A stretch of 64,000 bases of DNA from an uncultured Pseudomonadales bacterium (GTDB taxonomy: Bacteria > Patescibacteriota > Microgenomatia > UBA1400 > PJMF01). The notes under the pieces were generated by a model. That model was given only the letters and a program-made list of their open reading frames with translations, had not been told where the DNA came from and made no database searches. The translations under genes were made by a program, and so were the position numbers. Of the stretch, positions 2,701 to 42,411 are shown piece after piece. The stretch covers positions 5,148-69,147 of the forward strand of contig CAZYBC010000004.1 of NCBI GenBank assembly GCA_964645645.1. Direction: 5' to 3'. Within the stretch, counting starts at the first letter, position 1, and every line of letters starts with the position of its first letter.

Positions 2701-2703
2701 GCC

Positions 2704-16667: not shown

Positions 16668-17111
16668 TTACTCAATAATTTTAGTTCCACTCCAGCGAAA
16701 AGGTGAAAAATCAATTTTCAATAAATTTTGAAGAGGAAGAAACATTGGTTTTGGCAGCTCATTCCACTTAAACCAACGCCACTCCTCACATTTTGTTGGT
16801 TCCATAACTTCTGGCTCACCACTTTTACTAGATGCAATCACAAAAACAGTGATGTAATGTTTACCTTCTTTATAAAAAATATCATTAGTATATGGACCGT
16901 ATTGTAAATTTGTAATTTCCAAGCCGACTTCCTCTTTTGTCTCTCTCCTAGCACAATCAGCAATACTTTCATTTATTTCAAGATGACCGCCAGGAAAATT
17001 CCAAGTTCCTTCTCCATGTGAATTTTTGCGTTTACCAAGCAAAACTAAATCATCTCTTATGATAATAACTCCCAATCCTACTTTGGGTCGTCCCTTGAGT
17101 ATAATTGACAT
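16668..17111 (-). CDS. NUDIX hydrolase
   Basis: Nudix box GGHLEINESIADCARRETKEEVGL. Confidence 0.85.
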   Translation of the reverse strand: MSIILKGRPKVGLGVIIIRDDLVLLGKRKNSHGEGTWNFPGGHLEINESIADCARRETKEEVGLEITNLQYGPYTNDIFYKEGKHYITVFVIASSKSGEPEVMEPTKCEEWRWFKWNELPKPMFLPLQNLLKIDFSPFRWSGTKIIE

Positions 17112-17118
17112 AACTTAT

Positions 17119-17313
17119 TTAAATATATAATAAACTACTTCTATCTAGTTTAGTAGATTCGGCAACCTTACTCATGTCTTTAATTTTTGCTACATCACCT
17201 AATGCTTTCGCAATGAGTTTATTATCCCCAGTGGCAAAAGAAACATTGAGATATTCTTTAATATCTTTTTCTGTTTTTAGATAATCAGTGGAACTATATT
17301 TTGTTATTTTCAT
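17119..17313 (-). CDS. Truncated HTH addiction-module antidote-like protein (COG3636-like)
   Basis: LIAKALGDVAKIKDMSKVAESTKLDRSSLLY parallels LIAAALGDIARARGMSQLARDTGLSRESLYKAL of that family. The C-terminal end is missing. Confidence 0.4.
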   Translation of the reverse strand: MKITKYSSTDYLKTEKDIKEYLNVSFATGDNKLIAKALGDVAKIKDMSKVAESTKLDRSSLLYI

Positions 17314-17324
17314 AAATAGATCGC

Positions 17325-17957
17325 TTAATGAGTACTTAGACTTTCAGTAAGCGCCCTACCAATCAATTTTTCTAAAAGAGTTAAATCACCTTCATCACCA
17401 GCTTGCATGGCTTTAAGATATTCCTTCCTATCATCATCTGTTCCGACTTGTATTTCAATAGGTGGTAATTTTAATTTCAGTAAAATAAGCGATGTTAATA
17501 TCCGAGCAGTTCGACCATTGTAGTCTTGAAATGGATGAATAAAGACAAACCTATGTTGAAACCAAGCAAGGAAGCAAACGACCTTATCTATATATTCTGG
17601 ATCATTAGATTTAGGCAAACTATTAAGCTGCGCCTTTAAATCATCTAATAAATTTTTAACCAATTCTGGTATTTGAAAATATGCTGGTGCTTCTTTTCCA
17701 GAATAAGTAACTTGGATAGTTCTAAACTTGCCTGCCCAATCAGGGAAAATCCATTGAAAAGAAATCGCATGGAGTTTAAGAATCAATGAAGTAGTAATTT
17801 CTGTGTTTTTTCTAGACTTGATTAAATCATAAATAAACTCTAAGCCTTTTTTTGTGCCTTCTAACTCAAATTGAAGTAATTTTGTGCGAGGAATAATACC
17901 AAAAGCGGTTTCTTTGAAAGAAGTTGCACCTAGTGGTTTTGTGCTATCAATAGACAT
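17325..17957 (-). CDS. Fic/Doc-family protein (putative AMPylating toxin)
   Basis: Fic motif HPFQDYNGRTAR, a variant of HPFx(D/E)GNGRxxR. Confidence 0.75.
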   Translation of the reverse strand: MSIDSTKPLGATSFKETAFGIIPRTKLLQFELEGTKKGLEFIYDLIKSRKNTEITTSLILKLHAISFQWIFPDWAGKFRTIQVTYSGKEAPAYFQIPELVKNLLDDLKAQLNSLPKSNDPEYIDKVVCFLAWFQHRFVFIHPFQDYNGRTARILTSLILLKLKLPPIEIQVGTDDDRKEYLKAMQAGDEGDLTLLEKLIGRALTESLSTH

Positions 17958-17960
17958 TGT

Positions 17961-18134
17961 TTACTTAAATAACGCATTCACCATCTTGCGAGTAACTGGT
18001 TCACCCTCAAGTTTGGTGGTTCTGAAAATCATCTCAGGCATAGCAGCAAGAAACGCACTTAGTAATGACTTTTTAGTGGTTTTCTTTTTTTTATAGCTAG
18101 TATATGCCTTATGAAGGCGAGATTGCTTTTTCAT
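17961..18134 (-). CDS. Unannotated 57-aa ORF immediately upstream of fic, a putative VbhA-like Fic antitoxin
   Basis: The reverse complement reads MKKQSRLHKAYTSYKKKKTTKKSLLSAFLAAMPEMIFRTTKLEGEPVTRKMVNALFK. It contains TTKLEG, which matches the inhibitory (S/T)xxxE(G/N) motif. Its stop lies 3 nt before the fic ATG. Confidence 0.5.
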   Translation of the reverse strand: MKKQSRLHKAYTSYKKKKTTKKSLLSAFLAAMPEMIFRTTKLEGEPVTRKMVNALFK

Positions 18135-18369
18135 AGCTGAGAGTATTATAGCTCAAAAATCTTGAGGAATCTTTAGAATAAATATTGTGCCAGAATCGTG
18201 CCGCGTATCGTACCAATAAAAGTAAAATTAGTAATTATAATAGATTGGACATATGATGCCAGAAAAATTACTCTTGGAAAACCCTATTTATATGGCTATA
18301 GAAATCCAGAAAATAACATTTTTTGGTTATTTAATGAATGTATAACAGAAATGTTAAATATCGAAATAT

Positions 18370-18910
18370 TAGATAGTTGTGAAGCTCGCCGGGCTAAAGC
18401 CCGGAGCTTCACAGCGGATCTGTGTTTAGTTTGCTGATATACTTGCCTGTATGACAAGCAAGTATCAGGTAGGCTCTCATACTAAACATCGCCTTATTTA
18501 TCACTTCACTTTTATCCCTAAATACCGTAAAGAAATTATTAGAGGAAAGCTTAAAAAAAGACTGATTGAACTCTTTAACGAGTGCGCTTCTGTTAATAAT
18601 TGGTTAATCCTTCAATTGGAAATTCTTTCTGATCACGTCCATTTACTTATTCAACTTAATACTGATGATTCTCCTGCCAAAACTATGCAATTCCTTAAAG
18701 GTGGTTCTTCCATTGTGATCAGAAAAGAATTCCCTGATATCAAAGCTTTCCTCTGGGGTGACTCCTTCTGGGCCGATGGCTATTTTGTGGAAACTATCGG
18801 TATTAAAAATGAAAAAATTATCAGAGCCTACCTGGACTCTCAGCAAACTAAACACTCTAAGCCTCGCATTCACCACCGGGCTTGAAAGCCCGGCGTTCTC
18901 TGCTCAGGCG
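18370..18910 (+). mobile_element. IS200/IS605-family insertion sequence (tnpA only) with subterminal hairpins
   Basis: Left hairpin gaagctcGCCGGGCtaaaGCCCGGagcttc at about 18377-18406. Right hairpin CCGGGCttgaaaGCCCGG at about 18871-18888. The Y1 transposase gene lies between them. Confidence 0.75.
18451..18885 (+). CDS. tnpA: IS200/IS605 Y1 (HUH) transposase TnpA
   Basis: 144 aa with the HUH motif LSDHVHLLI, the typical IS200 TnpA size, and flanking hairpins. Confidence 0.85.
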   Translation: MTSKYQVGSHTKHRLIYHFTFIPKYRKEIIRGKLKKRLIELFNECASVNNWLILQLEILSDHVHLLIQLNTDDSPAKTMQFLKGGSSIVIRKEFPDIKAFLWGDSFWADGYFVETIGIKNEKIIRAYLDSQQTKHSKPRIHHRA

Positions 18911-19286
18911 TTATAGAAAAGTAGGTACTGATTATTTAAGCAATAATACAATTGGATATGCTCACTCAATTATTTTTATAGACGCTCTTATAAAACGAAC
19001 GTCAGAATTATCTGGAAAATCTGAAACAGAGATAAGATATTCATTATATTCTGGGTACTTGAGAGGTGATCACAGTGCACTAAGGGTTTTTAAAGAAACA
19101 TTTGGAGTTAATGCTTTGAGTTATTTATCAATTCTAGATGATTCACATTCATCATGGATGTATATTGAAATAGTTGCAAAAAAATTTGGATTCAAACCTG
19201 ATGAAATAGAACAAATGAAAATAAAAGCACAAGATTATGTCGAAAATAAAAAACCAATTAATATTATGGGAGGAATAATAATATAA
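18882..19286 (+). CDS. Hypothetical protein. The true start is probably internal, because the 5' end overlaps the IS right end.
   Basis: ORF only. Confidence 0.3.
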   Translation: MKARRSLLRRYRKVGTDYLSNNTIGYAHSIIFIDALIKRTSELSGKSETEIRYSLYSGYLRGDHSALRVFKETFGVNALSYLSILDDSHSSWMYIEIVAKKFGFKPDEIEQMKIKAQDYVENKKPINIMGGIII

Positions 19287-19662: not shown

Positions 19663-21414
19663 CTAGCTATTCTTCGTAAAAAGCACTGGAGTATTTGATT
19701 GCGGGCAAACGCCCTCAATTATGTTTGTTTGAATCACTATGGGCATTGGAAATTCATTTCCCGTTAACAAGGCCTGCCCCCTTTTGAAGGTTGGTAAAAA
19801 TGACAACAACCCTAAAGAACTATCTTGCACCGAATTCTTGATTGCCTCAATATCTCGGTCATTTATTAACCTATGAGCTATGAATGTTCCCATTTGACTT
19901 AATACACCTGCAGGAATATCTGCTGGTCTTTGTGTGCTAAGGCATAAAAAAAGTCCAAATTTTCTAGATTCTTTTGCTAGCTTTGCAAATGCGTCTAGTC
20001 TGTATTCGTTAGAGTATTCATCTTTTACTCGATCACGTTCAAAAATTAGGTGGGCTTCATCTACCATTAACACAACTGGTTTCAATTTAAAATTTTTAAA
20101 TACATCTAACTGCTTCCTCAATCCCTCAAGAAAAAACCTACCGATTGCATTACTAAATATATCCCTAGCATATGCATCAGTCGGAATTTGTGAAACGTCA
20201 AGCAAAAGCAATTTTTCGTTAGAATTATAAAATTCAATAAACTCATTCGCAAACTCTTTTAACTCACTTATCTTCTTAAAACCGAACAAAGTTGAAATAC
20301 CATTCTTAACCCTTAAATTTGATATTCTTCTGACAAGGGATGTGCAATGATCCAGGTGTCCCATATTCTGACCACCCCATAAAGCATAATTTTTTTCACC
20401 TTGTCTTGAACCAAATGCAGCGTCGTATACACACTCATACTCTATCTGCTTCATTAATTTTCCAATATCAAAGTCAGCGTATTCATCTTCGACTTGTTCA
20501 ATATATTGTTCATACAAAGTGTTATATTTTACTTTTTCCAAATTTTCTTTAATTATGTACCCTTCCTTAACAATTTCGGATTCATCTGCAACTTTGGCCA
20601 ACTTAAGACTTCTTATGGCTTGTTGCAAAATTGGTTCTTGAACTTGCCCAGATGGTCTAAAAAGTGCAAATAAATCAGATTCAGTCAACTTCTGATATGG
20701 AAAATTTGTGTCCCCACCTTCTCCAAATTTTAACCTTCGTGTATATGTTTGTTTACCAAATACCTCAAATTCACCATTTGCGTCTATTAATACAATTTTG
20801 GAATTATTTTTTTTAACGAGTTCTTCAATTAATTTTGCTAAGGTATAACTCTTCCCACTACCAGTAGTGCCAACAATTGCACAATGTCTTGATAATAGCG
20901 CGTTTGCAGATACTCTGATTGCTTTAGCTGAATCAGAATCGAGCTTGGCTAGTTCAAGTAGATCTTGAGGCGAATTTTTATCGTTTGTCTTCTTGCCAAA
21001 ATCTTTGATTAATTTTTCTAATAATGTAATTGGACAAGCATAGGCTTTTGCACCTATTTCGGGATATTGCTCTACGCCTGCGCCATTGTTCACTAAACTA
21101 AATGAATCGAAAGATAATTGAAATTCAACGATTGCAACGGGATAAGAATTGCTTTTTTTAATTGCAGAACTGCTTTCATATGAAGAATTTTTATCCTGCA
21201 ATACAACCTTGATAGTTTTCGCTAACAAACCATAACCATGCCCCTCAATCACCACATAATTACCAACGAGTCCACCCTGTAGGATTTCACCATCATAATA
21301 AAATCTATCAAGTAATTTAGGAGATGGGAAACAAACGCTTGCTGTTGTAGGCGTAACAGAAGAAACATATCCAATGAACCGTTCACGATTAAAAGGGGAC
21401 GCCGTCATCTTCAA
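19663..21414 (-). CDS. herA: HerA-like (DUF87) ATPase of a SIR2-HerA anti-phage module
   Basis: Walker A GTTGSGKSYTLAKL, Walker B VVLMVDEAHLIF. About 580 aa. Overlaps the upstream SIR2 gene by 26 nt. Confidence 0.75.
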   Translation of the reverse strand: MKMTASPFNRERFIGYVSSVTPTTASVCFPSPKLLDRFYYDGEILQGGLVGNYVVIEGHGYGLLAKTIKVVLQDKNSSYESSSAIKKSNSYPVAIVEFQLSFDSFSLVNNGAGVEQYPEIGAKAYACPITLLEKLIKDFGKKTNDKNSPQDLLELAKLDSDSAKAIRVSANALLSRHCAIVGTTGSGKSYTLAKLIEELVKKNNSKIVLIDANGEFEVFGKQTYTRRLKFGEGGDTNFPYQKLTESDLFALFRPSGQVQEPILQQAIRSLKLAKVADESEIVKEGYIIKENLEKVKYNTLYEQYIEQVEDEYADFDIGKLMKQIEYECVYDAAFGSRQGEKNYALWGGQNMGHLDHCTSLVRRISNLRVKNGISTLFGFKKISELKEFANEFIEFYNSNEKLLLLDVSQIPTDAYARDIFSNAIGRFFLEGLRKQLDVFKNFKLKPVVLMVDEAHLIFERDRVKDEYSNEYRLDAFAKLAKESRKFGLFLCLSTQRPADIPAGVLSQMGTFIAHRLINDRDIEAIKNSVQDSSLGLLSFLPTFKRGQALLTGNEFPMPIVIQTNIIEGVCPQSNTPVLFTKNS

Positions 21415-22681
21415 TGTCCTCTCTAGCAGGTTCTTTTATTAATATACCTTCATGTCTAGCTTCGAAAGTTTTTTCGGCCTCCTCATCAAAGTTAATTGGA
21501 ATTTCATTAACAAATCTTTGAAAAGTATCAGCAATCAATGTGATGTTATTATTTGTTTGATCACTAATTTTTTTGTTGAACATCGACACAACTTCTTGAG
21601 AAGATTTTTCGTCAGTTATTTTTGGTGATACTATTGCTAATTCGAAATTGAGATTAGACTCCAATGCTTCTAAAACCGCTCGATTGATATGTAGATCACT
21701 AAAACTATAGCCGATAACGAGCAAAACGGTATTTTCCTTTCTTAACGTCTGCTGAAACCTTGACATCATTTCAAAAAATGGCATTTGATAGCTTTGCTCG
21801 AATTTATGATTACTTGGGGGAATTATCATCGGATCATCGCTTGGTGTTTGGAGTCGTATAACTTGCGCTTTGTCTTCTGATCCTTCCCAATCTAAAGAAC
21901 CATGAAGTTTGAATAGTTGAAACACTTTTTCCTCATAATTTTCCTGGTCGTGAATTCTGTGATGTTCTCGTTTGACAATATCTAAGTCGAAATTTGAACC
22001 ATGAAAGACGGGTTTTCTAGTAAATGAAAACCCATCAACAATTGTGGCATTAATCATTTCACCTGCTTGCTCAAATAAAGTATCGTAATTCAATGTATAT
22101 AGCTGTAATCTACGTTTGTTTGAACTGCGAGCAGATATGACACTTTTTAAAAATTTCTTATGTGGTGAATTATCATGTAAAAATAAATTGCATTCACTTT
22201 TAATCGTTTTTATTATTGATTGCTTGACTTCGATGCATAATGATACATTTTCTTTTGTTTCTTGTCGTATATCGTATTCATTAGCTGTAGAATACATCTC
22301 AAGTTTGCTAATGAATCGCTCAAGCTGAAAATTATCTTCTTTTTCATTTAACAAATTTTGAAGAGCAGACACCTTCTTTTCATCAATATTTTTTTTGCAT
22401 TCAACCCAAATTTGCCCAACAGTTTTACCAGTATATTTGGTAGATGTTGTATCTAGGCTCTTGCCTTTTTTATCTAAAGTGATGGATGTGCCAGCTCCAG
22501 TTAATACCACAAAGTTGTCAGCCAACAGCCACTCTTTTAATTTTTGAGATATTTCTTGATATGCTAATTTTATACTCGACTCATCAATATAAGTAGAAAC
22601 ACCATCTGTTAATTTTACTTGGGCTTTTGAATTAGCTTTAATGCCAGTACTTGATTTGATCAGAGATAGAGTATCTCCCAT
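21389..22681 (-). CDS. SIR2-domain protein (NAD+-consuming effector of the SIR2-HerA defense system)
   Basis: Sirtuin-fold motifs VVLTGAGTSI (GAGxS), YTLNYDTLFE (TxNxD) and FKLHGSLDW (catalytic His-Gly). Paired with herA. Confidence 0.7.
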   Translation of the reverse strand: MGDTLSLIKSSTGIKANSKAQVKLTDGVSTYIDESSIKLAYQEISQKLKEWLLADNFVVLTGAGTSITLDKKGKSLDTTSTKYTGKTVGQIWVECKKNIDEKKVSALQNLLNEKEDNFQLERFISKLEMYSTANEYDIRQETKENVSLCIEVKQSIIKTIKSECNLFLHDNSPHKKFLKSVISARSSNKRRLQLYTLNYDTLFEQAGEMINATIVDGFSFTRKPVFHGSNFDLDIVKREHHRIHDQENYEEKVFQLFKLHGSLDWEGSEDKAQVIRLQTPSDDPMIIPPSNHKFEQSYQMPFFEMMSRFQQTLRKENTVLLVIGYSFSDLHINRAVLEALESNLNFELAIVSPKITDEKSSQEVVSMFNKKISDQTNNNITLIADTFQRFVNEIPINFDEEAEKTFEARHEGILIKEPAREDIEDDGVPF

Positions 22682-22713
22682 ATATTCCTCACTATCATTT
22701 GTTAACTATTTAT

Positions 22714-24165
22714 TTAACTCGCTTTCACCAACGATGCCTCCAATTCCTCGAATTGCTCTAAGGCATTACGAAGGTTTTCGGTAATTTCAGCAAGTAATAT
22801 CTCTGGCTCAGGTAGGTTTTCTAAATCTTCAAGCGATTCATCTTTAAGCCAAAAAATGTCCAAGCTCGTATTGTCACGCTTTATCAATTCGTCGTAAGAA
22901 AACATTTTGAAACGGTTGGTTTCAGAGCGTTCATGGCGATTGGTGGGGTTGTAGCAAGCAATGAAGTCCTCAAGGTCTTTTAAGGTCATCATATTTTGTT
23001 TTAAGGTGAAGTGTTTATTGGTTCTAAGATCGTAAAACCAAACCTCTTTTGTCCAAGGGTTTTCACTAGCTGGCTTTTTATCAAAAAAGATCACATTAGC
23101 CTTGACTCCATTGGCGTAAAAAATCCCAGTCGGTAATCGTAGGATGGTATGGACATCATAGTCATGCAGTAGCTTCTTGCGTATCGTTTCACCCGCGCCT
23201 GCTTCAAATAGTACATTGTCAGGAACTACCACCGCAGCACGACCACCAATTTTTAGTAGTGTTTTGATGTGTTGTAAAAAGTTTAATTGTTTGTTGGAAG
23301 TAGTCGCCCAAAAGTCTTCTCGCTCATAGGTTTGTTGTTCAGATTCAACCTCTCCAGCGGTATTGGTAATTTTAATACTGCTTTTTCGCCCGAAAGGTGG
23401 ATTAGTTAATACCAAGTCGAATCTATCGCCAGGGTCAGAAATAAGGCTATCTCCTACAGTTACAGGGCTGTTTTCACCGCCTATGCCATGCAAGAACAAG
23501 TTCATAGCACACAGTCTGGCGGTATTATCGACAATATCCCAGCCTTTAAAGGTGTTATTTCGTACAAACATCTGTTGGTCGATATCAAGCTTATGGTGTT
23601 CGTTTAGGTATTCATTAGTTGCTAGGAAAAATCCACCGGTACCACAAGCCGGATCGCACACCGTTTGGCCTGGTTCTGGTCGCATAACCTCCACCATAGC
23701 TCGAATTAAAGCTCTAGGGGTAAAGTATTGCCCAGCTCCGCTTTTGGTATCTTGGGCATTTCGTTCAAGCAAACCTTCGTAGATTTCACCTTTAACGTCT
23801 ACATCTAAGCCCATCCAAGTTTCACCATCGATCAAACTAACCAATCTTTTTAGTTTTGCAGGGTCTTGAATACGGTTTTGTGATTTACGGAAAATTAGGC
23901 CAAGTAAACCGCCTTCTTTTGAAAGCTCAAGCAAAATATGGCGATATTGTGCTTCAAGGTCAGTACCGTTGAGTTTAATTAAACTAGCCCAATCTAAACC
24001 TTCTGGGATTATTGAGGCTCTTTTGGTTAGCTTTGTTTGTTCATCAGCCATTTTGAGGAATAGAAGATAGGTAAGCTGTTCGACGTAATCGCCATAGCTT
24101 ACTCCGTCATCCAACAAAACAGTGCAAAATCCCCAAACTTTATTTACGATATTTGATTTTGTCAT
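22714..24165 (-). CDS. hsdM: Type I restriction-modification N6-adenine DNA methyltransferase HsdM
   Basis: Motif I VCDPACGTGGFF, motif IV LTNPPFG, HsdM N-terminal domain. Confidence 0.9.
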   Translation of the reverse strand: MTKSNIVNKVWGFCTVLLDDGVSYGDYVEQLTYLLFLKMADEQTKLTKRASIIPEGLDWASLIKLNGTDLEAQYRHILLELSKEGGLLGLIFRKSQNRIQDPAKLKRLVSLIDGETWMGLDVDVKGEIYEGLLERNAQDTKSGAGQYFTPRALIRAMVEVMRPEPGQTVCDPACGTGGFFLATNEYLNEHHKLDIDQQMFVRNNTFKGWDIVDNTARLCAMNLFLHGIGGENSPVTVGDSLISDPGDRFDLVLTNPPFGRKSSIKITNTAGEVESEQQTYEREDFWATTSNKQLNFLQHIKTLLKIGGRAAVVVPDNVLFEAGAGETIRKKLLHDYDVHTILRLPTGIFYANGVKANVIFFDKKPASENPWTKEVWFYDLRTNKHFTLKQNMMTLKDLEDFIACYNPTNRHERSETNRFKMFSYDELIKRDNTSLDIFWLKDESLEDLENLPEPEILLAEITENLRNALEQFEELEASLVKAS

Positions 24166-25307
24166 ACTAATTTCCCTTCAAAAGCTTGTTTTAAAATTGA
24201 TTGCTTAAGTTGATTGGTTTTTATTTTTGTCATTTGTAATAAGTTATTCAAATACGCTACTTTCGAAGATATTTCTTCATATTCTAAGTATGCCTGTTCA
24301 ACTGTTTTTCTTTCTGGTACCGGCACACATATTCTTGCAAGAGTTGATTGACTAATAGTGTTTTGCCCGGCCGATGACACCTTGTTTAGCTGAACAAACT
24401 TTCTCATCTTCGAAGTATTCATATACATCTGTACCCACTCAGCTAGATAAGGTTGTTTTAATCGAAATCGAATAAAATGATCACAGAATGCAATATCACC
24501 ATCTAGCCTATTACATAAAATCATTCGTCCAACAAAATTAGTACTCCCGTTAACACGGATGCACAATAAATCGTTTTCAGATAATTTATATTTTTCAATT
24601 TCGTTTTGATCTAATAAAATTGATCTTGTTTTTGTTAAATCTAATTTTTGGTCACTAATATCTGCCAACCTAACAACAACAGTATTTATTCCTGTTGTCC
24701 CAGAACGTTTGCTAATACCATTTTGAGATAGTTCAAATAATTCAGGAAATGTAATCAAATTTGAACTTGGTTGAACATTGTTAAACAATCTTTCAAGCCA
24801 TGAAGCTCTATATGTTTCTGTTTCTATAATTAATTTTTTTATTTCACCTATATTTACATCAATCACTGAAAACAGCTCTTCAATTTTATCGACGATTTTT
24901 TGTTGGTCATCTATTGGAGGGAGTGGAATTTGTAAGGGTGACAAATTAGTCCGAGTAATTTGCGGCTGTGCTGAACCTGAAATTACTTTTGAAAAATCAG
25001 AGCCTATCAAAGCGTATTTTAAAAACAACTTATTAAGGTTATCAGTTTTTGGTTTTGCAACCATTGAATTACCTGTAATCCACGAAAACGCTTCACTAAA
25101 ATTTATCGTTCCACAAGTTGCCCCACGACAAGTAATACAAACCTGTTCATCTTCATGATTGTATTGGTCATAATATCCTATGACGCCATTAGCGCCATAA
25201 ACCTTATATTTCCCATATTTTAAAATTTGCTTTGATGTAATAGTTTTGGGTTGGTATAAATCACACACATCCCCCAAACTTACTTTTTTATAAATACTAT
25301 TTGTCAT
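24162..25307 (-). CDS. hsdS: Type I R-M specificity subunit HsdS (two target-recognition domains)
   Basis: 381 aa with a two-TRD architecture and conserved central and C-terminal helical repeats. 4-nt overlaps with hsdM and hsdR. Confidence 0.8.
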   Translation of the reverse strand: MTNSIYKKVSLGDVCDLYQPKTITSKQILKYGKYKVYGANGVIGYYDQYNHEDEQVCITCRGATCGTINFSEAFSWITGNSMVAKPKTDNLNKLFLKYALIGSDFSKVISGSAQPQITRTNLSPLQIPLPPIDDQQKIVDKIEELFSVIDVNIGEIKKLIIETETYRASWLERLFNNVQPSSNLITFPELFELSQNGISKRSGTTGINTVVVRLADISDQKLDLTKTRSILLDQNEIEKYKLSENDLLCIRVNGSTNFVGRMILCNRLDGDIAFCDHFIRFRLKQPYLAEWVQMYMNTSKMRKFVQLNKVSSAGQNTISQSTLARICVPVPERKTVEQAYLEYEEISSKVAYLNNLLQMTKIKTNQLKQSILKQAFEGKLV

Positions 25308-28012
25308 ATCACTAAATAACTATTCAATTCATTTGTAATCTGCTCTAGTTGCCCGCCAAACACCTCATGAGCCTTAAAGATACCACCCCTATCTCTGAAT
25401 GGAGGTAACTCAAAACTAGTGATTTCTCCATTAAGCTGAATTGAGCCATTGATTGCCACAAAGTCTTTAATCATTTTAAGCCAAAAAAGTTGATCGTCAG
25501 AAAATTGCATACCTTTGGCATGAGTATCATCCAGCCATTTTTGGAATCGCTCTTCAACTGTAGTGGGGAATGGTTCGAGGTCTTGGGATTTATCTACCGC
25601 AAATCGGACTAAGGAAACAATGTTAGTTAACACTCGATCTGGCCTGGCATTTCTGACCTTTGATTTATACAGCTCTCGATATGCATTCCATAGCTGATCA
25701 TTGGTGAATCTGACATTGGCATGAAGCAACCTATCTCGAAGTTCCTTAATTTCTTGGAAGGTCAAAGCCTGTTTTTTGTACGGCTTGTTAAAGATAATTT
25801 GCAAGGCAGTAATTTCATCTTGATTTTGTTTGATGTACTCCTCAAAACTTTGGACTAATTCTTGTGGGGCGATTGGTTCGGGCTTCGGAACGTCAATCGG
25901 ATTGTCTGGGGATAGGTCAATCACTATTTCATTGCGTTGTTTAATATCGAGCATTAACTGTCTAAAGTCGGGATTATCGAAATAATTTAGAGCCTCTTGT
26001 TTCTGTTGTTGCTTTTGCTCATCAGTGCCAGCTTTGTCAGGGTCGATCACATCTAAAAGTTCGTGAGCCACTTGTTTTAAGGTAACTCCATTATTGGCTT
26101 GTTGTAGTTCGTCTTTATCGGAATCAGATAATGATTGTTCAAATTTGGAAATACGACCAGCCAGAGAGGCAATCCCATCATCATCAATGGTTCTTAGGGC
26201 TGCACTTTCAAGCAAGGATTTGAATGACACAAATGGTTGACGCTCAAGAGTACGAGAATCAGTTTTTACGCTTTCAGTTACCCCAACAGCATCAAAAATT
26301 ACAAATCTGTTTTTGTAATCTGCATCAGGTGTGACAGCTTTAAGGTCATCCTCGCCAATGGTACGAGTCCCTCGACCCTTCATCTGCTCAAAATAAACTC
26401 GGGATTTGACATCACGCATAAAGATCAAGCACTCAAGGGGTTTGATGTCGGTACCAGTCGAAATCATATCAACCGTAACGGCTATACGTGGGAAATATGA
26501 ATTGCGGAAACTTTGAATTAAATCTTCGACGTTTTCGCCTGTTCGGTAGGTAATCTTTTTTGCAAACTGATTTCATTTACCAAATACTTCACGCACGATA
26601 TGAACAATCTCCTCTGCATGGTTATCATCTTTGGCAAAAATCAAAGTTTTGGGAACAGTTTCACGATCAGGGAAAATATCAGGCAACCAGTTTTTGAATA
26701 CTCGTATAACAGTTCTAATCTGATCGGGGGCAACTACACTTCGATCAAGCTGACTAGCTTCATAGGTTAAATCTTCATCTAATTGCTCCCATCTAAGTTT
26801 TCTAGTTTGACGATCACGAACATCAACAAAAGTGCCTTGATTGATGGTATTACCTTGCTCACCAATTTGAGTTTTGATGCGGTATACGTCGTAACCAACG
26901 TTAATTCCATCAGCTACAGCACGTTCATGAGAATACTCCATGATGAGATTGCTATTGAAAAAGCCTACCGTATGTTTTGATGGCGTGGCAGTTAATCCTA
27001 TTAGAGTAGCGTCAAAATACTCAAGGACTTGTCGCCAAAGGTTATAAATAGAGCGATGGCATTCGTCGGTTACAATAAAGTCAAAGGTTTCGATAGGTAG
27101 TTTAGGATTGTATTCAACTGGTGCATTATCTTCGTAACTAAAAGCAGGTGGATTATCAAATTGTGAACCTTCTTCCAATGTTTCATCAAAATCTTGATTT
27201 CCTGAAAGAATTGAGTACATGCGTTGGATGGTGCCAATGCAAACTTTACTAACCGGATCAATGCTGGGGCTTTTAAGATGCTGAACGTTGTATAGCTCGG
27301 TAAACTTGCGGCCATCATCGGGAACGGTAAACTTTTGGAATTCTTTGAGTGTTTGTCTGCCCAAGTTGCCACGATCGACTAAAAATAAAATACGTTTGGC
27401 TTTGCCATATTTAAGCAATCGGTAAATAAACGAAGTAGCAGTAAAAGTTTTACCACTACCTGTGGCCATTTGAAGTAAAGCTCGGGGATCGTCTTTGGCC
27501 AATGATTTTTCAAGATTGGTGATAGCCTCAATCTGACAATCACGAAGGCCAACCACGTTTAATTCTGGGAATTTTTGCAAACGACCTCTGAGGGTTGAGT
27601 CATCTTGCACCCATTCAAGTAATGTTTCTGGTTTATGGAAGGCGAACAAGCGTCTGGATCTAGGTTGTGGATCACGTTCATTTCGAAAAAAAGTTTCTGT
27701 TCCAGTACTTTCGTAAGCAAATGGTAGGTTTTCATCCACCTTGGGTAAATTTGGATCGGTACTGGTAATGTACTTGCCAGATTGTTCGGCAACACCGCTA
27801 AGGGTAGTGCCTGCCGCTTTGGCTTCGACTACACCCACTGCTTTTCGATCAACAAAAAGCATGTAATCGGCTGGTCCTTTTTGGGTTGGAAATTCTCTTA
27901 CAGCAACACCTAATTTTGCTCCTAGATTTAATCTGGAGCGATCTTGAATATCCCATCCTGCCTGGATGAGTAATTTATCGATATCTTGTCGTGCTATTTC
28001 TTCTGGTGTCAT
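25304..28012 (-). pseudogene. hsdR: Type I restriction endonuclease HsdR, interrupted by a single in-frame TGA at 26573-26575
   Basis: N-terminal part 26573-28012 has QMATGSGKTFTA and DECHR. C-terminal part 25304-26572 continues in the same frame straight after the TGA (...REVFGK*NQFAKKITYRTGENVEDL...RIAVTVDMISTGTDIKP...QMKGRGTR) with no other stop or frameshift. Confidence 0.8.
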
Positions 28013-28183
28013 ACATATAGTTTCCTGAAAACTGAAGTACTGACAATTATAGCTCTTAGCCTGGGATAATAAAAGAATACAAGTTTACCTCTAAAAAATA
28101 CCTTTTTTGGGGTGGAGTAAGAGAGGTTGTTAGAAATTTAATTCCTCAGCTCAATCCCTATTTTCTCACACTAACAAGCTTTT

Positions 28184-28226
28184 GAAAAAAAAATAGCTGC
28201 AAAAAGTTGGTCAGACTTTTTGCAGC
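28184..28226 (-). terminator. Rho-independent terminator (GCTGCAAAAAGT-loop-ACTTTTTGCAGC, then T-run on the minus strand)
   Basis: 12-bp perfect stem read directly, followed on the minus strand by TATTTTTTTTT. It lies downstream of 28248-28625. Confidence 0.65.
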
Positions 28227-28247
28227 TTGAAGTGATCTGATACCGCG

Positions 28248-28625
28248 CTACTGTTTTTTACGCCAGTTGCGATACCAGATCATAAATGGCAAACCAATTA
28301 ATAAGGCAGCCCCGCCAGCGAAGTAAAAAATCCAGTGGAAACTGAGTCCCATCTCGATTCCTCCTAAGCCAGCGATTAGAATCAACACAAACCACAACCT
28401 AAATTGCAGGTCTTGATCGTGTTTAACTCTAGCGTCAACTGCTTTTGCTCCCTTCATGCTCAAAGCAAACCACCCACGAATTAACAACCCAACTACGATA
28501 CCTCCCACTGCTGACCGAGCAAAGGGAAAGCTACCACCGTATGGAGTCATTAAAAAAATGAGCGCCGCAAGAGCAGAGAGAACTGAGAAAACGTTCACCT
28601 CCTGCTTTGGTGTCATTTCTAACAC
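28248..28625 (-). CDS. Hypothetical small membrane protein
   Basis: Four hydrophobic segments. Local GC looks higher than the flanking chromosome. Confidence 0.45.
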   Translation of the reverse strand: MLEMTPKQEVNVFSVLSALAALIFLMTPYGGSFPFARSAVGGIVVGLLIRGWFALSMKGAKAVDARVKHDQDLQFRLWFVLILIAGLGGIEMGLSFHWIFYFAGGAALLIGLPFMIWYRNWRKKQ

Positions 28626-28728
28626 CTCCTTAGTTGCCGTAAGATTTGCTTTGCGCTAACGCATCGCCACAGCAACTAATAATTATTATATCAAGTAAAA
28701 GCTTAAAAGTAAATATTATAGGATATTG

Positions 28729-28805
28729 GGGTGGCTGACGAGACTTGAACTCGCGACCTCCGCTTTCACAGAGCGGCGCTCTAAACCAACTGAGCTACAA
28801 CCACC
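28729..28805 (-). tRNA. tRNA-His (anticodon GTG)
   Basis: Reverse complement GGTGGTTGTAGCTCAGTTGGTTTAGAGCGCCGCTCTGTGAAAGCGGAGGTCGCGAGTTCAAGTCTCGTCAGCCACCC. 8-bp acceptor stem with an encoded G-1, D-arm, CT-GTG-AA anticodon loop, TTCAAGT T-loop. Confidence 0.8.
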
Positions 28806-28881
28806 ATATAAATGTTAACTGATTAATTTCAGCTAACTTTATTTTTAAAAAAGTCTAAAAGATTTTTCTAAGACTTTTCTG

Positions 28882-28955
28882 TACGCCAAGTAGGACTCGA
28901 ACCTGCGACCTACTGCTTAGAAGGCAGTCGCTCTATCCAGCTGAGCTATTGGCGC
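28882..28955 (-). tRNA. tRNA-Arg (anticodon TCT)
   Basis: Reverse complement GCGCCAATAGCTCAGCTGGATAGAGCGACTGCCTTCTAAGCAGT...TTCGAGTCC...TTGGCGTA. Cloverleaf with a CT-TCT-AA anticodon loop. There is one T-stem mismatch and a G1:U72 pair. Confidence 0.7.
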
Positions 28956-31882: not shown

Positions 31883-32083
31883 ATGTATAATTGGAACATA
31901 GACACTACTAAATTAAAGAAAAATCCTGATGAATACGCTAAATTTATTTTAGAACAAAGAATTAATTTTGGACTAAATGGTAAAAAACTTTCATTAAAAA
32001 ACCTTAAAAAATACTGGAACGAGTTAGATATTGATTTGGCAAAAAAAAATTATTTACAAAAAATTATATGGCCTCAATCTTAA
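31883..32083 (+). CDS. Small hypothetical protein overlapping the start of the downstream nucleotidyltransferase gene. It could be a cognate antitoxin.
   Basis: 66-aa ORF with a 16-nt overlap with 32068-32724. Confidence 0.3.
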   Translation: MYNWNIDTTKLKKNPDEYAKFILEQRINFGLNGKKLSLKNLKKYWNELDIDLAKKNYLQKIIWPQS

Positions 32084-32724
32084 CTAAACAACAAAAATTA
32101 GCTTTAAAACTTATTGCACAAACGCAACTTGCTTCATTTTTTTATTTTTCTGGTGGAACAGCTTTAGCACATTATTATTTACGACATCGCAAATCAGAAG
32201 ATTTAGATTTTTTTTGCGAAAATGAATTTGATCCACAACAAATTACGATCATTTTAAAAAGTATTCAAAATAAACTCAAGTTTAATGAATTTGATTTTCA
32301 AAATAGTTTTAACCGAAATTTATATTTTTTAAAATTTGATGATAATTATGTTTTAAAACTTGAATTTACTTATTATCCTTTTCAACAAATTGAAAAACCT
32401 TCAAAAAAAGATAATTTATTAATAGATAGTCCAATTGACATCGCTACTAACAAATTATTCACCATTGTCCAAAAACCCAGAGGTAGAGATTATTATGATT
32501 TGTATTATTTAATTGATAAATATGGCTACCAAATTGAAGATTTACGCATGAAAGCTAAGATTAAATTTGATTGGCATATTGATCCATTACAATTAGCTTC
32601 TAGGTTAAATGAAGTTGACCTAAAATTAGATGATCCAATTCTTTTAAAAAAAATCAATAAGAAAAAATTGATTAATTTTTTTCAAAATGAAGCCATAAAA
32701 TTAAGCAAAAAAATTTTAGATTGA
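32068..32724 (+). CDS. AbiEii/DUF1814-like nucleotidyltransferase (third copy)
   Basis: FSGGTALAHYYL...RKSEDLDFF matches the GGTAL...RxSxDLDF signature shared with 39125-39823 and 43443-44201. Confidence 0.55.
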   Translation: MASILTKQQKLALKLIAQTQLASFFYFSGGTALAHYYLRHRKSEDLDFFCENEFDPQQITIILKSIQNKLKFNEFDFQNSFNRNLYFLKFDDNYVLKLEFTYYPFQQIEKPSKKDNLLIDSPIDIATNKLFTIVQKPRGRDYYDLYYLIDKYGYQIEDLRMKAKIKFDWHIDPLQLASRLNEVDLKLDDPILLKKINKKKLINFFQNEAIKLSKKILD

Positions 32725-32900: not shown

Positions 32901-34922
32901 CTATTCATATCTCAACGCATTTAATGCTGAAATTTTGGTGGCTCTTTTAGCAGGATAATGACCAGTTAAAATTCCCACAATGGTTGATAAAAACATTACA
33001 GAAATAACAAAAGTAAAAGGAATTACTGAGACATCAACTAAACCAACTCCCTTTACCACAGCTACACTGGATAAAGCCAAACTCAATAATTTTCCTGCGC
33101 TATAACCAATCATCAATCCCAATAAGCCCCCATAAAAACCCATAATCATCGATTCGGTTAAAAATAATTCTTTTACTTCTGCAGATTTCATGCCCATTGC
33201 TTTCATCAAACCTACTTCACGGGTTCTCTCTAATAAAGACACCGTTAAAGTATTAAACATCCCCAAAGTAGCAACTGCTAAAGCCACCATCCCCACTATC
33301 CCTAAAACTAATCTAAAAGTAGCAAACAAATTATTAATCTGAGCAACTGTATCAACTACTGAAACTGTCCCATAACCCATTGATTCAATCGCCGATCTAA
33401 CATTAGCCAACTGATTTTTTTCTTTGACAATAATTTTAATTTGAGACATGCGATTAATGCCCAAAGACCTCAATTCCACAAAAGGAACATAAACTACAGG
33501 CGTATCTTCTTCTGGAGTAACTCCTACAATTTTGTAAGTGGTGGGGGCAGATTCAATTCTTTCTGTTTCTCCCTCAACCAAATTACCAATTGCCACAAAA
33601 GTTAAAGTGATTTCTTGACCGACAGCTTGATTTTCAGCTAAACCGATGACATTTAACACTGCTTTGTTAACTACTGCTTCTCGTAAAGAATTTTTATTGA
33701 GCTCTACAACCTTAATTTTGTTATTTATGGGCATATTAGCCGAACTACTAGCCAAATTAACAATTGGCAAAGTGCCATCAGCTTTAGTAACGCCTAACAC
33801 TTTGGCTGACTCATTGACTGTAATTGGAGAAAGCCAAGCCGTATAACCCTCTTTTATTAATTGTTTGCCAGCTTCATCTCTAAGAGGAATATATTGCCCA
33901 TCTTCACAATCTTGGTCAACCACGGCTAAAGCATTTACCTCGGTTTTTTCTGCCTCAGTTTTAACGCAAGTTTGATTTTTCCACAAAGTAAATTCTGCCT
34001 TAATCCAAAAAGCAGTGTTTGTTGGTAAACTATCTTCTGGACCAGCATAATCGGCATAATGATCACCTAAAACTTGACTGCCATTTTGAGTCTCAGCTAC
34101 TTTTTTAGTGTAACCTAATACCGAACTTTGAGTAGAGGATTCACTACGCACTCTCAGCCACTCACCCTCTTTAATACTAAAAGTTAAAAGCTCAGCGCTA
34201 TCACTAGCTTGCTGAGTTTGACCAGTAATATCAGTAGTAATAATCTTGCTTGATTTTGGTGAAGTAGAACTAACTAAATCATCACTCACAAAAATTTGGC
34301 CGTGAATGGGCTGAATAGCTGAGCTTTTTAAATAATCGGTGGTAACTCCATAAACTGCTAAATCTGAAACAGAATTTTGATAAGAAATTTTACCAACAAC
34401 ACTGATTAAGGGGAGTGTAGCCTTAATTTGTGGCATATCTTTTAAACTAGCCAGCAATGATTCATTTAAAGCAGTTTCTTCACTTAACCCAGGTAAAATT
34501 TCTGCTTGTTCAAGCTCTTCCAACCGAGCCACTCGTGAAGTAACTAAATTTTCTAAACCATAACCAACTGAGACTAAAAAAACAATAAAAGCAATACTAA
34601 TGGCCATCCCGCCAATCGTGACCATGGTTCTGGTTTTTTTAACCTGCATATTGCGGAATGACAATTCAATTAAATAAGATCGGCTTAAAGTTTTTTGCTG
34701 ATTTTTTTCTAAAAAATCCAAAGTTTTTTCATAAAATTTATCAAATTGACCGGCCAAAGAGAGAACAGGTTTTAACCAAAAATAATCTTTTTTAATAGCT
34801 AATAAAAGATTAAAAACAATCTTAAGAGAATATAAAACCACCATTAACATAAAGCTGGCAAGATTTTTAAATCTAAATAACAACATCTTTAACCAGTTGT
34901 TTATTTTTTTCCAAATGATCAT
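32901..34922 (-). CDS. ABC transporter permease, FtsX/MacB-like (paralog of 3444-5450)
   Basis: Same architecture and C-terminal FtsX TM block (LLERTREVGLMKAMGM) as 3444-5450. Confidence 0.8.
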   Translation of the reverse strand: MIIWKKINNWLKMLLFRFKNLASFMLMVVLYSLKIVFNLLLAIKKDYFWLKPVLSLAGQFDKFYEKTLDFLEKNQQKTLSRSYLIELSFRNMQVKKTRTMVTIGGMAISIAFIVFLVSVGYGLENLVTSRVARLEELEQAEILPGLSEETALNESLLASLKDMPQIKATLPLISVVGKISYQNSVSDLAVYGVTTDYLKSSAIQPIHGQIFVSDDLVSSTSPKSSKIITTDITGQTQQASDSAELLTFSIKEGEWLRVRSESSTQSSVLGYTKKVAETQNGSQVLGDHYADYAGPEDSLPTNTAFWIKAEFTLWKNQTCVKTEAEKTEVNALAVVDQDCEDGQYIPLRDEAGKQLIKEGYTAWLSPITVNESAKVLGVTKADGTLPIVNLASSSANMPINNKIKVVELNKNSLREAVVNKAVLNVIGLAENQAVGQEITLTFVAIGNLVEGETERIESAPTTYKIVGVTPEEDTPVVYVPFVELRSLGINRMSQIKIIVKEKNQLANVRSAIESMGYGTVSVVDTVAQINNLFATFRLVLGIVGMVALAVATLGMFNTLTVSLLERTREVGLMKAMGMKSAEVKELFLTESMIMGFYGGLLGLMIGYSAGKLLSLALSSVAVVKGVGLVDVSVIPFTFVISVMFLSTIVGILTGHYPAKRATKISALNALRYE

Positions 34923-35701
34923 TGCTGTAATTTTTCTCCTCGTTTTGTATTATGAATATTTTTTTTAAAATATTCACTGGGATTTGTAGCTTGAGAAATA
35001 ATTTTGCCATCAAACATTTCTAAACTCCGAGAAGCATAATCTAAATATTCCAAATCGTGAGTCACCATAATCACTGTTTTACCTTGCCGATGTAAATTAG
35101 CCAGCAATTTCATCAACTCTTGACCAGATTTAAAATCTAAATTACCAGTTGGCTCATCCGCAATGATTAAATCTGGATTAGTCACCATCGCTCTAGCTAA
35201 AGCCACGCGTTGTTGTTGTCCGCTAGATAACTCTGTAGGGATATAATCTTGCCAATCGGTCATGCCTACTAAATCTAAAACCGCCAAAGCCTTTACGGCA
35301 GCCTCTTTGGCTTTCATGCCGCTTAAACGCAATGGAAACATCACATTTTCTTTAACCGTTAAAGCTTTTACCCAGTTGGGCTGCTGATAAACCATGCCAA
35401 TGTAATATTTTCTTAAATCAGATAGGCCATCTTCATCAAGGCTATCATATAAAGATTGACCTTTAAATAAAACTTTGCCATGAGTAGGTTTTTCCAAGCC
35501 CAATAAAATATGCAATAAGGTAGATTTACCACAACCTGATGGCCCAAAAATTACTAAAAATTCGCCAGCTTTTACGACTAAATTAATATCCATTAAAATA
35601 GGCGTGGCTTGAGCTTTCACAAAAAAAGTTTTATCTATATTAATCGCTTCAAGCACAGGGCGATTAGATTTTGCTGGTAGAGTCTTATTCATTTCAATCA
35701 T
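34919..35701 (-). CDS. ABC transporter ATP-binding protein (paralog of 2704-3447, roughly 55 percent identical by eye)
   Basis: [37 protein letters not shown]. Confidence 0.9.
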
Positions 35702-35704
35702 TGA

Positions 35705-39124: not shown

Positions 39125-39823
39125 TTATTTTTCATTGCTTTCTTTTCGCAATTGCAATAAAGAAATAGTCTCTTCTCGCAACTTAGCTCTAGCCCAATCC
39201 TTCTGCCCTTCAGTCAATAATTCACCTGACCCATCCAAAATATTGCGGTTATTCATTTTTTCTAATTTTTTAATACATTTTTCTACTAACGTATCGAAAG
39301 GCATCTCTGCTCGCTGTTCTACAATTTTTTTATTAATTAAAAAACGATTTTTCAAAAAAAACCAAACATCATAAATGTCTCGGCTAGTTTTGCCCATCCG
39401 TTCATACATAGCCATTAATTTATGAGCAAACATATCCTCAGCAACCATCACCAGCATCGACATCCCAAGATAAGTTTTTATTTCATATTTTGAGCCAAAA
39501 TGTCTACGATTGATTTCTATCTTAATATTGTGAGCCTTATCTTGATATGAAAGTAAGCAAAATAAATTATGACGTTTTTTATATGAATCTTTAAGTTGCC
39601 CGTATTTTTTCACAATCTCTACCACTCGCTCAAAAACTAAAGCTTCTTTGTCATCATCCAATAAATCAAAATCAAGATCAACTGAAAATCGATCTAAGCC
39701 ATAAAACATTAACAAAGCTGTTCCGCCTTTAAATCCCAAAAAAGGTGAAATAGTGGTATCAGAATAAATATTTTTCAGAATTTGAAACAAAATAGTTTTA
39801 TGAATTACAATATCAAATGTCAT
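39125..39823 (-). CDS. abiEii: AbiEii-family nucleotidyltransferase toxin (type IV TA / abortive infection)
   Basis: FKGGTALLMFYGLDRFSVDLDF (GGTAL...RFSxDLDF). 4-nt overlap with the upstream abiEi. Confidence 0.7.
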   Translation of the reverse strand: MTFDIVIHKTILFQILKNIYSDTTISPFLGFKGGTALLMFYGLDRFSVDLDFDLLDDDKEALVFERVVEIVKKYGQLKDSYKKRHNLFCLLSYQDKAHNIKIEINRRHFGSKYEIKTYLGMSMLVMVAEDMFAHKLMAMYERMGKTSRDIYDVWFFLKNRFLINKKIVEQRAEMPFDTLVEKCIKKLEKMNNRNILDGSGELLTEGQKDWARAKLREETISLLQLRKESNEK

Positions 39824-40865: not shown

Positions 40866-40872
40866 GAAAACT

Positions 40873-42400: not shown

Positions 42401-42411
42401 AAAAACTCAAA

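Follow-up and report, generated by a model that had tools for sequence, protein, structure and literature searches.

Type I restriction-modification systems of the IB family have historically been defined by subunit complementation and antibody cross-reactivity, and Type I systems are known to diversify through TRD recombination (PMC3874165). A new specificity exposes the unmodified genome to HsdR (PMC4231737). Defence genes, hsdR included, are often pseudogenised in nature, and in Staphylococcus aureus RN4220 a premature stop in hsdR yields a strain which modifies without restriction (PMC3312211). Premature stops reported elsewhere (PMC7557576) were rejected as a parallel to the case described here, as they lie in the hsdS TRDs and not in hsdR. 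In genomes using genetic code 25, UGA often serves as a sense codon and RF2 has been lost (PMC8629427).

We have analysed an interrupted hsdR gene within a 64,000-nucleotide stretch of DNA, referred to in its entirety as the window. The best explanation of the interruption, to which we assign a probability of roughly 0.6, is a genuine nonsense mutation of very recent origin in hsdR of a Type IB-like operon, by which Gly480 (GGA) became a stop (TGA). The operon lies within a defence island, and the host is a candidate phyla radiation (CPR) bacterium of the Microgenomates group. As such, the lesion is an ordinary pseudogenising event, with little import beyond annotation. The relevant features of hsdR are as follows.

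25304..28012, minus strand: hsdR, Type I (IB-like) restriction subunit (translation, Pfam, NCBIfam, homologues).
26573..26575, minus strand: premature TGA, codon 480, in place of an invariant Gly (translation, homologue alignment).
26576..28012, minus strand: predicted truncated HsdR, 479 aa (translation, alignment to 3H1T, Pfam).
25307..26572, minus strand: untranslated remainder of hsdR, 422 codons (translation, Pfam, 3H1T alignment).
26567..26569, minus strand: another change specific to the window, 6 nt past the stop, giving CAG (Gln) at codon 482 (homologue alignment).

Minus-strand translation of 25304-28012 gives a single frame of 903 codons, 902 plus the natural TGA stop, free of frameshifts and broken internally just once, by TGA at codon 480 (window 26575..26573). 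The ORF listing shows this frame as two pieces, one of 479 aa at 26573..28012 and one of 387 aa at 25304..26467, the latter beginning at the first ATG 3' of the TGA, and the 35 codons between them (26468-26572) translate as continued HsdR sequence. Pfam detects ResIII/SWI2_SNF2/HSDR_N in the N part and EcoEI_R_C in the C part, the two halves match consecutive stretches (233-526 and 735-1118) of the 1123 positions of NCBIfam NF008521, and each of the nearest homologues is one 902-aa protein that aligns collinearly and without gaps to the two halves. Combined, the shared frame, consecutive model positions and collinear intact homologues identify, well beyond chance, one gene carrying one lesion. 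The first-pass annotation had likewise placed both halves in one frame, read the intervening 35 codons as continuous and named the TGA as sole lesion, and the frameshifts by which it thought the two ORFs might prove to be separate genes are absent. Annotation of the locus should consequently show one hsdR pseudogene, or carry a flag for verification at read level, rather than list two helicase-like proteins.

The first-pass annotation had also suggested alignment to intact HsdR proteins as a guide to the residue expected at the stop. That residue is Gly, present in 120 of the 120 best homologues, all of which are intact and 899-933 aa in length. The closest 902-aa homologues share 98, 92 and 87% amino acid identity, the three nearest alleles are 92.9%, 93.4% and 78% identical at the nucleotide level, and codon 480 reads GGA (relatives L001 and L084) or GGG (L002 and L003), so that a single G to T change explains the stop. 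Internal TGA was not found in hsdR of these nearest relatives. The conspecific strain represented by contig L001 (SRR29243425), with a backbone of 96.4% nucleotide identity, possesses an intact 902-aa hsdR, which indicates that the stop is derived and strain-specific. The TGA allele occurs in one assembly only, exact look-up of the 479-aa and 387-aa fragments returning the source NCBI contig alone; among metagenome contigs, a degenerate pattern scan produced one unrelated chance match and no contig sharing the TGA. Codon 482, which is GAG or GAA in L001, L084 and L002, encodes Glu in 71 and Asp in 49 of the 120 homologues and never Gln. Two changes absent from all homologues are therefore present within 7 nt, at invariant and near-invariant residues. 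A template switch or gene conversion was rejected as the source of these clustered changes, as the 9-mer TGAAATCAG has no other copy in the window; elsewhere in the window, its 8-mers were found only >10 kb away. As a separate observation on relatedness, the best match to the UvrB protein in a genome-contig scan is 53% identical, implying that this organism has no close GTDB representative.

HsdR motifs were placed by alignment to Vibrio vulnificus HsdR 3H1T. The truncated polypeptide retains the PD-(D/E)xK nuclease (D49, E63 and K65, as E63-A-K65) and SF2 motifs I (GSGKT, 185-189), II (DECH, 316-319), III (TATP, 341-344) and IV (KTLIFAK, 455-461). Motifs V (STGTD, 518-522) and VI (QMKGRGTR, 543-550) and the EcoEI_R_C domain (about 717-900) lie 3' of the stop, which separates motif IV from motif V within the second of the RecA-like motor domains. 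The conceptual 902-aa HsdR therefore contains the nuclease and all motor motifs I-VI, but the uninterrupted frame required for restriction proficiency is broken at codon 480. Type I enzymes require the motor motifs, and their HsdR binds the M2S methyltransferase through its C-terminal region. With the standard code, translation ends at codon 480, and a 479-aa fragment would be expected neither to translocate DNA nor to join the M2S complex, predicting, from what is known of Type I systems, a restriction-deficient cell. HsdM and HsdS, whose genes are intact, would still be able to methylate (r- m+), although their level may drop by polarity, hsdS and hsdM being downstream of hsdR in one operon. 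The earlier reading of a nonsense-inactivated R subunit is thus supported by the invariant Gly and the single G to T change, while its corollary, that methylation is left intact, is an expectation subject to possible polarity. The organism is predicted to be restriction-deficient and probably still methylates at the target of this system.

The remainder of the operon and its surroundings comprise the following features.

24162..25307, minus strand: hsdS, 381 aa, intact (Pfam Methylase_S, PADLOC Specificity_I).
22714..24165, minus strand: hsdM, 483 aa, intact (Pfam HsdM_N + N6_Mtase, PADLOC MTase_I).
28195..28227, minus strand: terminator-like hairpin and T-run closing an upstream small membrane-protein gene (sequence).
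28066..28095, minus strand: promoter-like site ahead of hsdR (by match to consensus alone; class not enriched over shuffles).
19663..22681, minus strand: SIR2 + HerA defence pair directly downstream of hsdM, in the same defence island (Pfam, PADLOC, NCBIfam).
28727..28955, minus strand: tRNA-His(GTG) and tRNA-Arg(TCT) at the edge of the island, both incapable of decoding UGA (Rfam).

hsdR, hsdS and hsdM are adjacent in this order on the minus strand, the ATG of hsdS overlapping the hsdR stop and that of hsdM the hsdS stop by 4 nt (ATGA) in each case. The same order occurs in L001, L002, L003 and a JGI contig, whereas in L084 an additional gene separates hsdS from hsdM. Both downstream genes proved to be intact, as first annotated, with uninterrupted frames and full-length profile matches. 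HsdS residues 7-380 align with positions 4-392 of the 392 in PADLOC Specificity_I; Pfam Methylase_S finds TRD1 only (residues 6-157) and NCBIfam NF007278 spans 184-380, the profile matches corresponding to two TRDs separated by conserved regions. HsdM residues 1-481 align with positions 1-479 of the 487 in MTase_I (651 bits) and include the AdoMet-binding and catalytic motifs DPACGTGGF and NPPF of an N6-adenine methyltransferase. The terminator-like hairpin suggests that hsdR-hsdS-hsdM begins a new transcription unit. Evidence for an internal promoter serving hsdS and hsdM was not obtained, promoter-like sites numbering 24 against 29.8 expected in shuffles. The missing Shine-Dalgarno sequence before hsdS was dropped as a sign of coupling to hsdR; its absence is uninformative because just 6 of 46 window genes have an SD-like core. 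Downstream, SIR2 (21389-22681; PADLOC 232 bits, 13-406 on 11-402 of 414) and HerA (19663-21414; 471 bits, 5-577 on 7-569 of 579) overlap by 26 nt, forming the adjacent SIR2-domain and HerA ATPase genes of an anti-phage pair, with the NCBIfam anti-phage SIR2/HerA models scoring below cutoff.

The age of the lesion is constrained by the codons 3' of the stop, in which the window lineage has accumulated 41 synonymous and 5 non-synonymous changes (P ~6e-18 under neutrality), a ratio not distinguishable from that in intact alleles (Fisher p=0.29). This signal of purifying selection suggests that hsdR was selected until very recently and, combined with the intact conspecific gene, that the lesion is either very recent or a consensus error. 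In the latter case hsdR would really be intact (GGA) and the T, perhaps along with the codon 482 G to C change, would be artefacts produced by low coverage, by mixed strains or by systematic errors in base calling, a reading which we consider somewhat unlikely but take seriously. A consensus error would account for an allele unique to one assembly and equally predicts a downstream sequence which looks fully selected, the two unmatched changes within 7 nt could point to local trouble in base calling or assembly, and blocks identical to the conspecific at 100% alternate along the locus with blocks diverged by 7-13%, such that strain mixtures could confuse an assembler. However, the other 47 genes of the window are free of internal stops, and the coding sequence, about 57 kb in total, showed no noticeable frameshift, implying a low per-base error rate, and substitution errors are rare in polished consensus. 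UvrA, UvrB and ClpB also have full domain complements, ClpB being of the length of its homologues, and the assembly is thus not error-ridden. A second broken gene suspected at 58870-60300 (in-frame TAG) was rejected, as its translation looks like two separate genes. The frequency with which defence genes such as hsdR are pseudogenised likewise counts against an artefact (PMC3312211).

Full-length HsdR would also be made if the codon 480 UGA were read as Gly (as in code 25), Trp or selenocysteine, which is very improbable. The host is a CPR bacterium, the nearest named ClpB matches being Woesebacteria, Pacebacteria and Microgenomates, the interrupted site is an invariant Gly, the residue given to UGA by code 25 (PMC8629427), and purifying selection continues 3' of the stop, all of which recoding would accommodate. 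The coincidence with Gly is nevertheless weak, as GGA is among only seven sense codons a single step from TGA, and UGA=Gly is known in Gracilibacteria and Absconditabacteria only (PMC8629427). TGA terminates 10 of the 48 window genes at homologue-matching lengths (e.g. hsdR, 902 aa; ClpB, 852 aa), including hsdR and hsdS themselves, and codon 480 is the lone internal TGA in 19,132 codons, 1,047 of them Gly codons, with no other internal stop. Genome-wide recoding (code 4 or 25) is rejected on these grounds, in line with the first-pass annotation, whose two examples of TGA as a true stop, 2704-3447 and 3444-5450, were both confirmed. Acquisition of hsdR by transfer from an organism using code 25 was also rejected, the nearest alleles using GGA or GGG without internal TGA, as was selenocysteine, given that no SECIS-like fold follows the stop (86 nt, MFE -12.9 kcal/mol, z = -0.75 versus shuffles), no Rfam match was obtained and homologues carry Gly, neither Cys nor Sec, at the site. 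Rfam finds just three ordinary tRNAs in the window (tRNA-His, tRNA-Arg and tRNA-Ile). The locus-specific readthrough offered earlier as an option is unsupported: the stop is absent in relatives, is followed by no structured element and is the same codon as the terminator of hsdR. Separate production of the two halves and their reassembly into an active R subunit is even less probable. In favour of a functional split gene, motifs and selection signatures are intact in both halves, but none of the 120 listed homologues is split, the conspecific strain has the fused gene and the break, coming after motif IV and before motif V, interrupts the RecA2 fold itself and not a domain boundary. Re-initiation was rejected, as the 35 codons past the stop contain no ATG, GTG or TTG and the first candidate ATG, at 26467, is inside motif V. 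Least credible of all is low-level or ambiguous decoding of UGA as Gly (e.g. by a tRNA-Gly(UCA) encoded elsewhere), which would represent an intermediate stage on the way to the code 25 of the sister lineages Gracilibacteria and Absconditabacteria and leave hsdR partly functional.

A recent nonsense mutation thus remains the preferred reading, and the adjoining hsdS gene provides a possible context for it.

24107..25339, minus strand: block of 1,233 nt, 100% identical to the conspecific L001 (nucleotide alignment).

This block comprises the last 33 nt of hsdR, the whole of hsdS and the first 58 nt of hsdM. Zero mismatches over its length has a probability of ~3e-20 at the backbone divergence (96.4% identity), yet its flanks are 8-13% diverged from L001 and the HsdS proteins of other relatives are 23-26% identical only. 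Perfect identity between divergent flanks indicates, at the level of sequence, that the hsdS cassette was recently exchanged between conspecific strains. Speculatively, hsdR knockout may have been favoured or tolerated after the exchange left new target sites on the chromosome unmethylated. The hsdR stop as the footprint of such a self-restriction conflict is less exotic and likelier than ambiguous UGA decoding, but is still doubtful: the link to the exchange is circumstantial, and the conspecific strain with the same hsdS has an intact hsdR. If the mutation were confirmed by reads and the two events were linked, the locus would show restriction being lost in nature after a specificity switch, in a lineage with no known restriction-alleviation mechanism. 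It offers a snapshot of fast Type I locus turnover in CPR populations, with hsdS exchange and an apparently fresh hsdR knockout at one locus.

Compared with known systems, the operon resembles Type IB (EcoAI/EcoEI) in its HsdR, HsdM and HsdS subunits and in an HsdR with an N-terminal PD-(D/E)xK nuclease, an SF2 motor and an EcoEI_R_C C-terminal domain (PF08463, 127.6 bits versus a cutoff of 24). The best NCBIfam models of hsdR, NF008521 and NF046051 (EcoAI/FtnUII family), are both below cutoff, and scores so far under the equivalog cutoffs (273+152 versus 729 and 174+32 versus 550) suggest a distant EcoAI/FtnUII relative. In contrast to Type IB, the genes here follow the order hsdR-hsdS-hsdM and overlap at ATGA, hsdR has a premature stop and the host belongs to the CPR. 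The S. aureus RN4220 allele is similar in having a single premature stop with intact methylation genes; however, RN4220 is a laboratory strain that was chemically mutagenised and has a tested phenotype, whereas here the assembly is of an uncultured organism with a predicted phenotype and hsdR is upstream of hsdS and hsdM within one operon. The CPR affiliation of the host, a GC content of only about 35% and a TGA exactly at a required Gly recall code 25 (Gracilibacteria/Absconditabacteria), but UGA here ends 10 of 48 genes and is internal only once, and by ClpB the host groups with Microgenomates, not Gracilibacteria. The closest likeness at hsdS is to hsdS/TRD exchange in Type I systems, with a variable hsdS between conserved hsdR and hsdM sequence. 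Phase-variable systems of the pneumococcal type differ in that they undergo recombinase-driven shuffling within the locus, whereas no spare hsdS copies or recombinase were found in this locus, in which the whole gene appears to have been replaced between strains.

hsdR is a single frame of 903 codons on the reverse strand (window 28012 to 25304) which, on translation, is interrupted by one internal stop only, a TGA at codon 480 (26575 to 26573). ORF listing divides the gene into two pieces, 26573–28012 (479 aa) and 25304–26467 (387 aa), the latter starting at the first ATG past the stop, and the 35 intervening codons read as unbroken HsdR sequence. Pfam assigns ResIII, SWI2_SNF2 and HSDR_N to the N-terminal part and EcoEI_R_C to the C-terminal part, the halves match consecutive stretches (233–526 and 735–1118) of the 1123-position NCBIfam model NF008521, and both also match the EcoAI/FtnUII-family NCBIfam model. 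Together with the alignment of the closest alleles, all without gaps relative to the window over 2,709 nt, these results confirm the first-pass annotation in that both halves share one frame with continuous HsdR sequence between them and that the TGA is the only lesion, with zero frameshifts.

Relatives returned by a search of a 5.8-billion-protein collection were all intact, full-length proteins of 899–933 aa, including 902-aa HsdR relatives at 98%, 92% and 87% identity. The best 120 were aligned, as had been proposed for establishing the expected residue, and 120 of 120 have Gly at the position of the stop, within a motif, FGKGN(E/D)F, that is almost invariant among them. DNA recovered for the closest alleles carries GGA or GGG at codon 480, so that the lesion amounts to one G to T transversion, GGA to TGA.

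Closest hsdR alleles: locus, source, nucleotide identity to the window, codon 480
L001, Logan SRR29243425, 92.9%, GGA
L084, Logan SRR28385528, 93.4%, GGA
L002/L003, JGI and Logan contigs, 78%, GGG

A second unique change lies 6 nt from the premature stop, at codon 482 (26567–26569), which is CAG (Gln) in the window and Glu or Asp in 120 of 120 homologues. No local donor for the changes at codons 480 and 482 was found.

HsdR motifs were assigned from the sequence, from its alignment with the 3H1T fragment of V. vulnificus HsdR and from Pfam.

Features of the conceptual HsdR protein (residues)
D49 and E63-A-K65, nuclease residues
185–189, motif I, GSGKT
316–319, motif II, DECH
341–344, motif III, TATP
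455–461, motif IV, KTLIFAK
518–522, motif V, STGTD
543–550, motif VI, QMKGRGTR
about 717–900, EcoEI_R_C domain

The stop falls within the second RecA-like domain, between motifs IV and V, leaving the predicted truncated product without half of the motor or any of the C-terminal region. Because the motor motifs are essential in Type I enzymes and HsdR requires its C-terminal part to bind the M2S complex, the fragment should be restriction-dead. A functional split HsdR is implausible, as the 35 codons that follow the stop offer no ATG, GTG or TTG as a start and the earliest ATG falls inside motif V.

The genes are ordered hsdR-hsdS-hsdM on the reverse strand with ATGA stop/start overlaps at the junctions, and the strong terminator of a small membrane-protein gene precedes the operon. 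Both hsdM and hsdS are intact, as first annotated, HsdM carrying DPACGTGGF and NPPF and HsdS giving a full-length match to the PADLOC specificity profile. That methylation is likewise intact we only infer, since polarity from the stop, which precedes hsdS and hsdM within a single transcription unit, might lower methylase expression. hsdS lacks a ribosome-binding site, a feature that would point to coupling with hsdR, but 40 of 46 window genes lack one as well and the absence is uninformative. The locus is a small defence island, with tRNA-His and tRNA-Arg directly upstream of the operon and a SIR2-HerA pair, then an IS200-type transposase gene, downstream. Shine-Dalgarno-like cores precede only 6 of 46 window genes, three of these being hsdR, SIR2 and HerA, and GC is 0.41 in the hsdR region versus about 0.35, consistent with an island (19663–28012) foreign to an SD-poor genome. 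Adjoining it at 18451–19286 are an IS200/IS605-family tnpA (144 aa) and an overlapping 134-aa ORF without a family match, which may be a tnpB remnant.

The initial view that TGA is a real stop elsewhere in the window, making genome-wide recoding unlikely, is borne out by the 48 likely genes (19,132 codons, 90% coding density), which end in TAA (29), TGA (10) or TAG (9) and contain the hsdR TGA as their sole internal stop, compared with 1,047 Gly codons. TGA is also the natural terminator of hsdR (at 902 aa, as in homologues), of hsdS and of ClpB (852 aa, the same as relatives). The closest named ClpB matches (about 70–74% identity) are Woesebacteria, Pacebacteria and Microgenomates, placing the host among Microgenomates-group CPR bacteria; UGA is known to be read as Gly only in Gracilibacteria and Absconditabacteria (PMC8629427). 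A stretch of 86 nt beginning just ahead of the TGA is no more stably folded than shuffled sequences (z = −0.75), and Rfam detects three ordinary tRNAs (His, Arg, Ile) and nothing else over the window. Recoding, selenocysteine or programmed readthrough at codon 480 is thus unsupported, and locus-specific readthrough, the third of the options initially listed, has no support either. That the stop replaces Gly is a weak coincidence, because only seven sense codons are a single substitution away from TGA and GGA is among them; ambiguous UGA-Gly decoding in this CPR bacterium, a relative of the lineages that use code 25, with this coincidence as its sole support, is extremely improbable.

Codon changes were polarised among three roughly equidistant hsdR alleles. 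E482Q, unscorable in this way, is added in parentheses.

Synonymous/non-synonymous changes by lineage
Window: upstream of the stop 18/3; downstream 41/4 (5 non-synonymous with E482Q)
L001 (intact): upstream 32/3; downstream 59/5
L084 (intact): upstream 41/10; downstream 32/0

In the downstream half of the window allele, 5 of 46 changes are non-synonymous (P about 6e-18 under neutral drift), and the alleles with an intact gene do not differ in this respect (Fisher p=0.29). This pattern indicates purifying selection on the downstream half for essentially the whole window branch, and the stop is consequently either very young or not real. We favour a real mutation, with a probability of about 0.62, nonsense inactivation of hsdR being a familiar natural and laboratory event. 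A consensus error, although less likely, would account for the uniqueness of the TGA allele, whose 479-aa and 387-aa fragments are singletons of one 74,345-bp NCBI contig, for a degenerate scan of metagenome contigs that returned one unrelated chance match only for TGA in this context, and for two odd changes so close together; however, internal stops are absent from the 47 other window genes, in which no frameshift was seen either, which argues that the consensus is good.

A pentapeptide-repeat/uvrB backbone contig (L086) from SRR29243425 is 96.4% identical to the window over 2,936 nt, indicating that a conspecific strain is present there, and the hsdR of this strain (L001) is intact. Relative to L001, the 5' end of the locus (27972–28309) is 100% identical over 338 nt and the hsdR body is 3–13% diverged, reaching 10–13% at the 3' end. 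A 1,233-nt block (window 24107–25339, L001 2999–4233) is then 100% identical, comprising the last 33 nt of hsdR, hsdS in full and 58 nt at the start of hsdM, past which the hsdM 5' end is about 8% diverged. With the backbone diverged by 3.6%, a stretch of 1,233 nt free of mismatches has a probability of about 3e-20; HsdS of other relatives is only 23–26% identical to that of the window. An identical block with diverged flanks points to very recent exchange of the hsdS specificity cassette between conspecific lineages, and exchange of specificity by recombination is known in Type I systems generally (PMC3874165). Such a swap may have favoured hsdR knockout, as a new specificity would leave the chromosome unmodified against HsdR, a situation handled in E. 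coli by ClpXP-dependent restriction alleviation (PMC4231737). The idea is speculative, given that the same hsdS accompanies an intact hsdR in the other strain. Among related loci, L084 carries an AlbA_2/HATPase_c_4 gene between hsdS and hsdM (3976–5433) and a DpnI-like gene after hsdM (6948–7364). In L002, ThsB-TIR and caspase-like genes (16803–18161) follow the Type I locus, and the surroundings, with a relaxase, TraG-like protein and serine recombinase, look like a mobile element.

Elsewhere, the window contains a complete diversity-generating retroelement (40720–43371), whose 146-nt repeats are 91% matched with 13 of 13 mismatches at template-repeat adenines.

Components of the retroelement
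40720–40865, template repeat
40873–41229, bAvd
41216–42400, reverse transcriptase
42462–42607, variable repeat
42478–43371, reverse strand, target gene with Lcl_C-type C-terminus

Three AbiEii-type nucleotidyltransferase toxin genes (32068–32724, 39125–39823 and 43443–44201), the last two with upstream ORFs lacking a Pfam match (39820–40401 and 44207–44989), probably represent multiple AbiE toxin-antitoxin pairs. Paralogous three-gene modules in opposite orientation (25–5450, forward; 32901–38872, reverse) each encode a large fn3/Pur_ac_phosph_N surface protein (891 and 1055 aa, respectively), an ABC ATPase and a MacB/FtsX-type permease.

By sequence, the system belongs to Type I restriction-modification and would function alike; its closest family is Type IB (EcoAI/EcoEI), although it scores below the equivalog thresholds. 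The hsdR lesion is of a well-known kind, with nothing new in kind here; S. aureus RN4220, which has a nonsense hsdR, performs modification and not restriction (PMC3312211).
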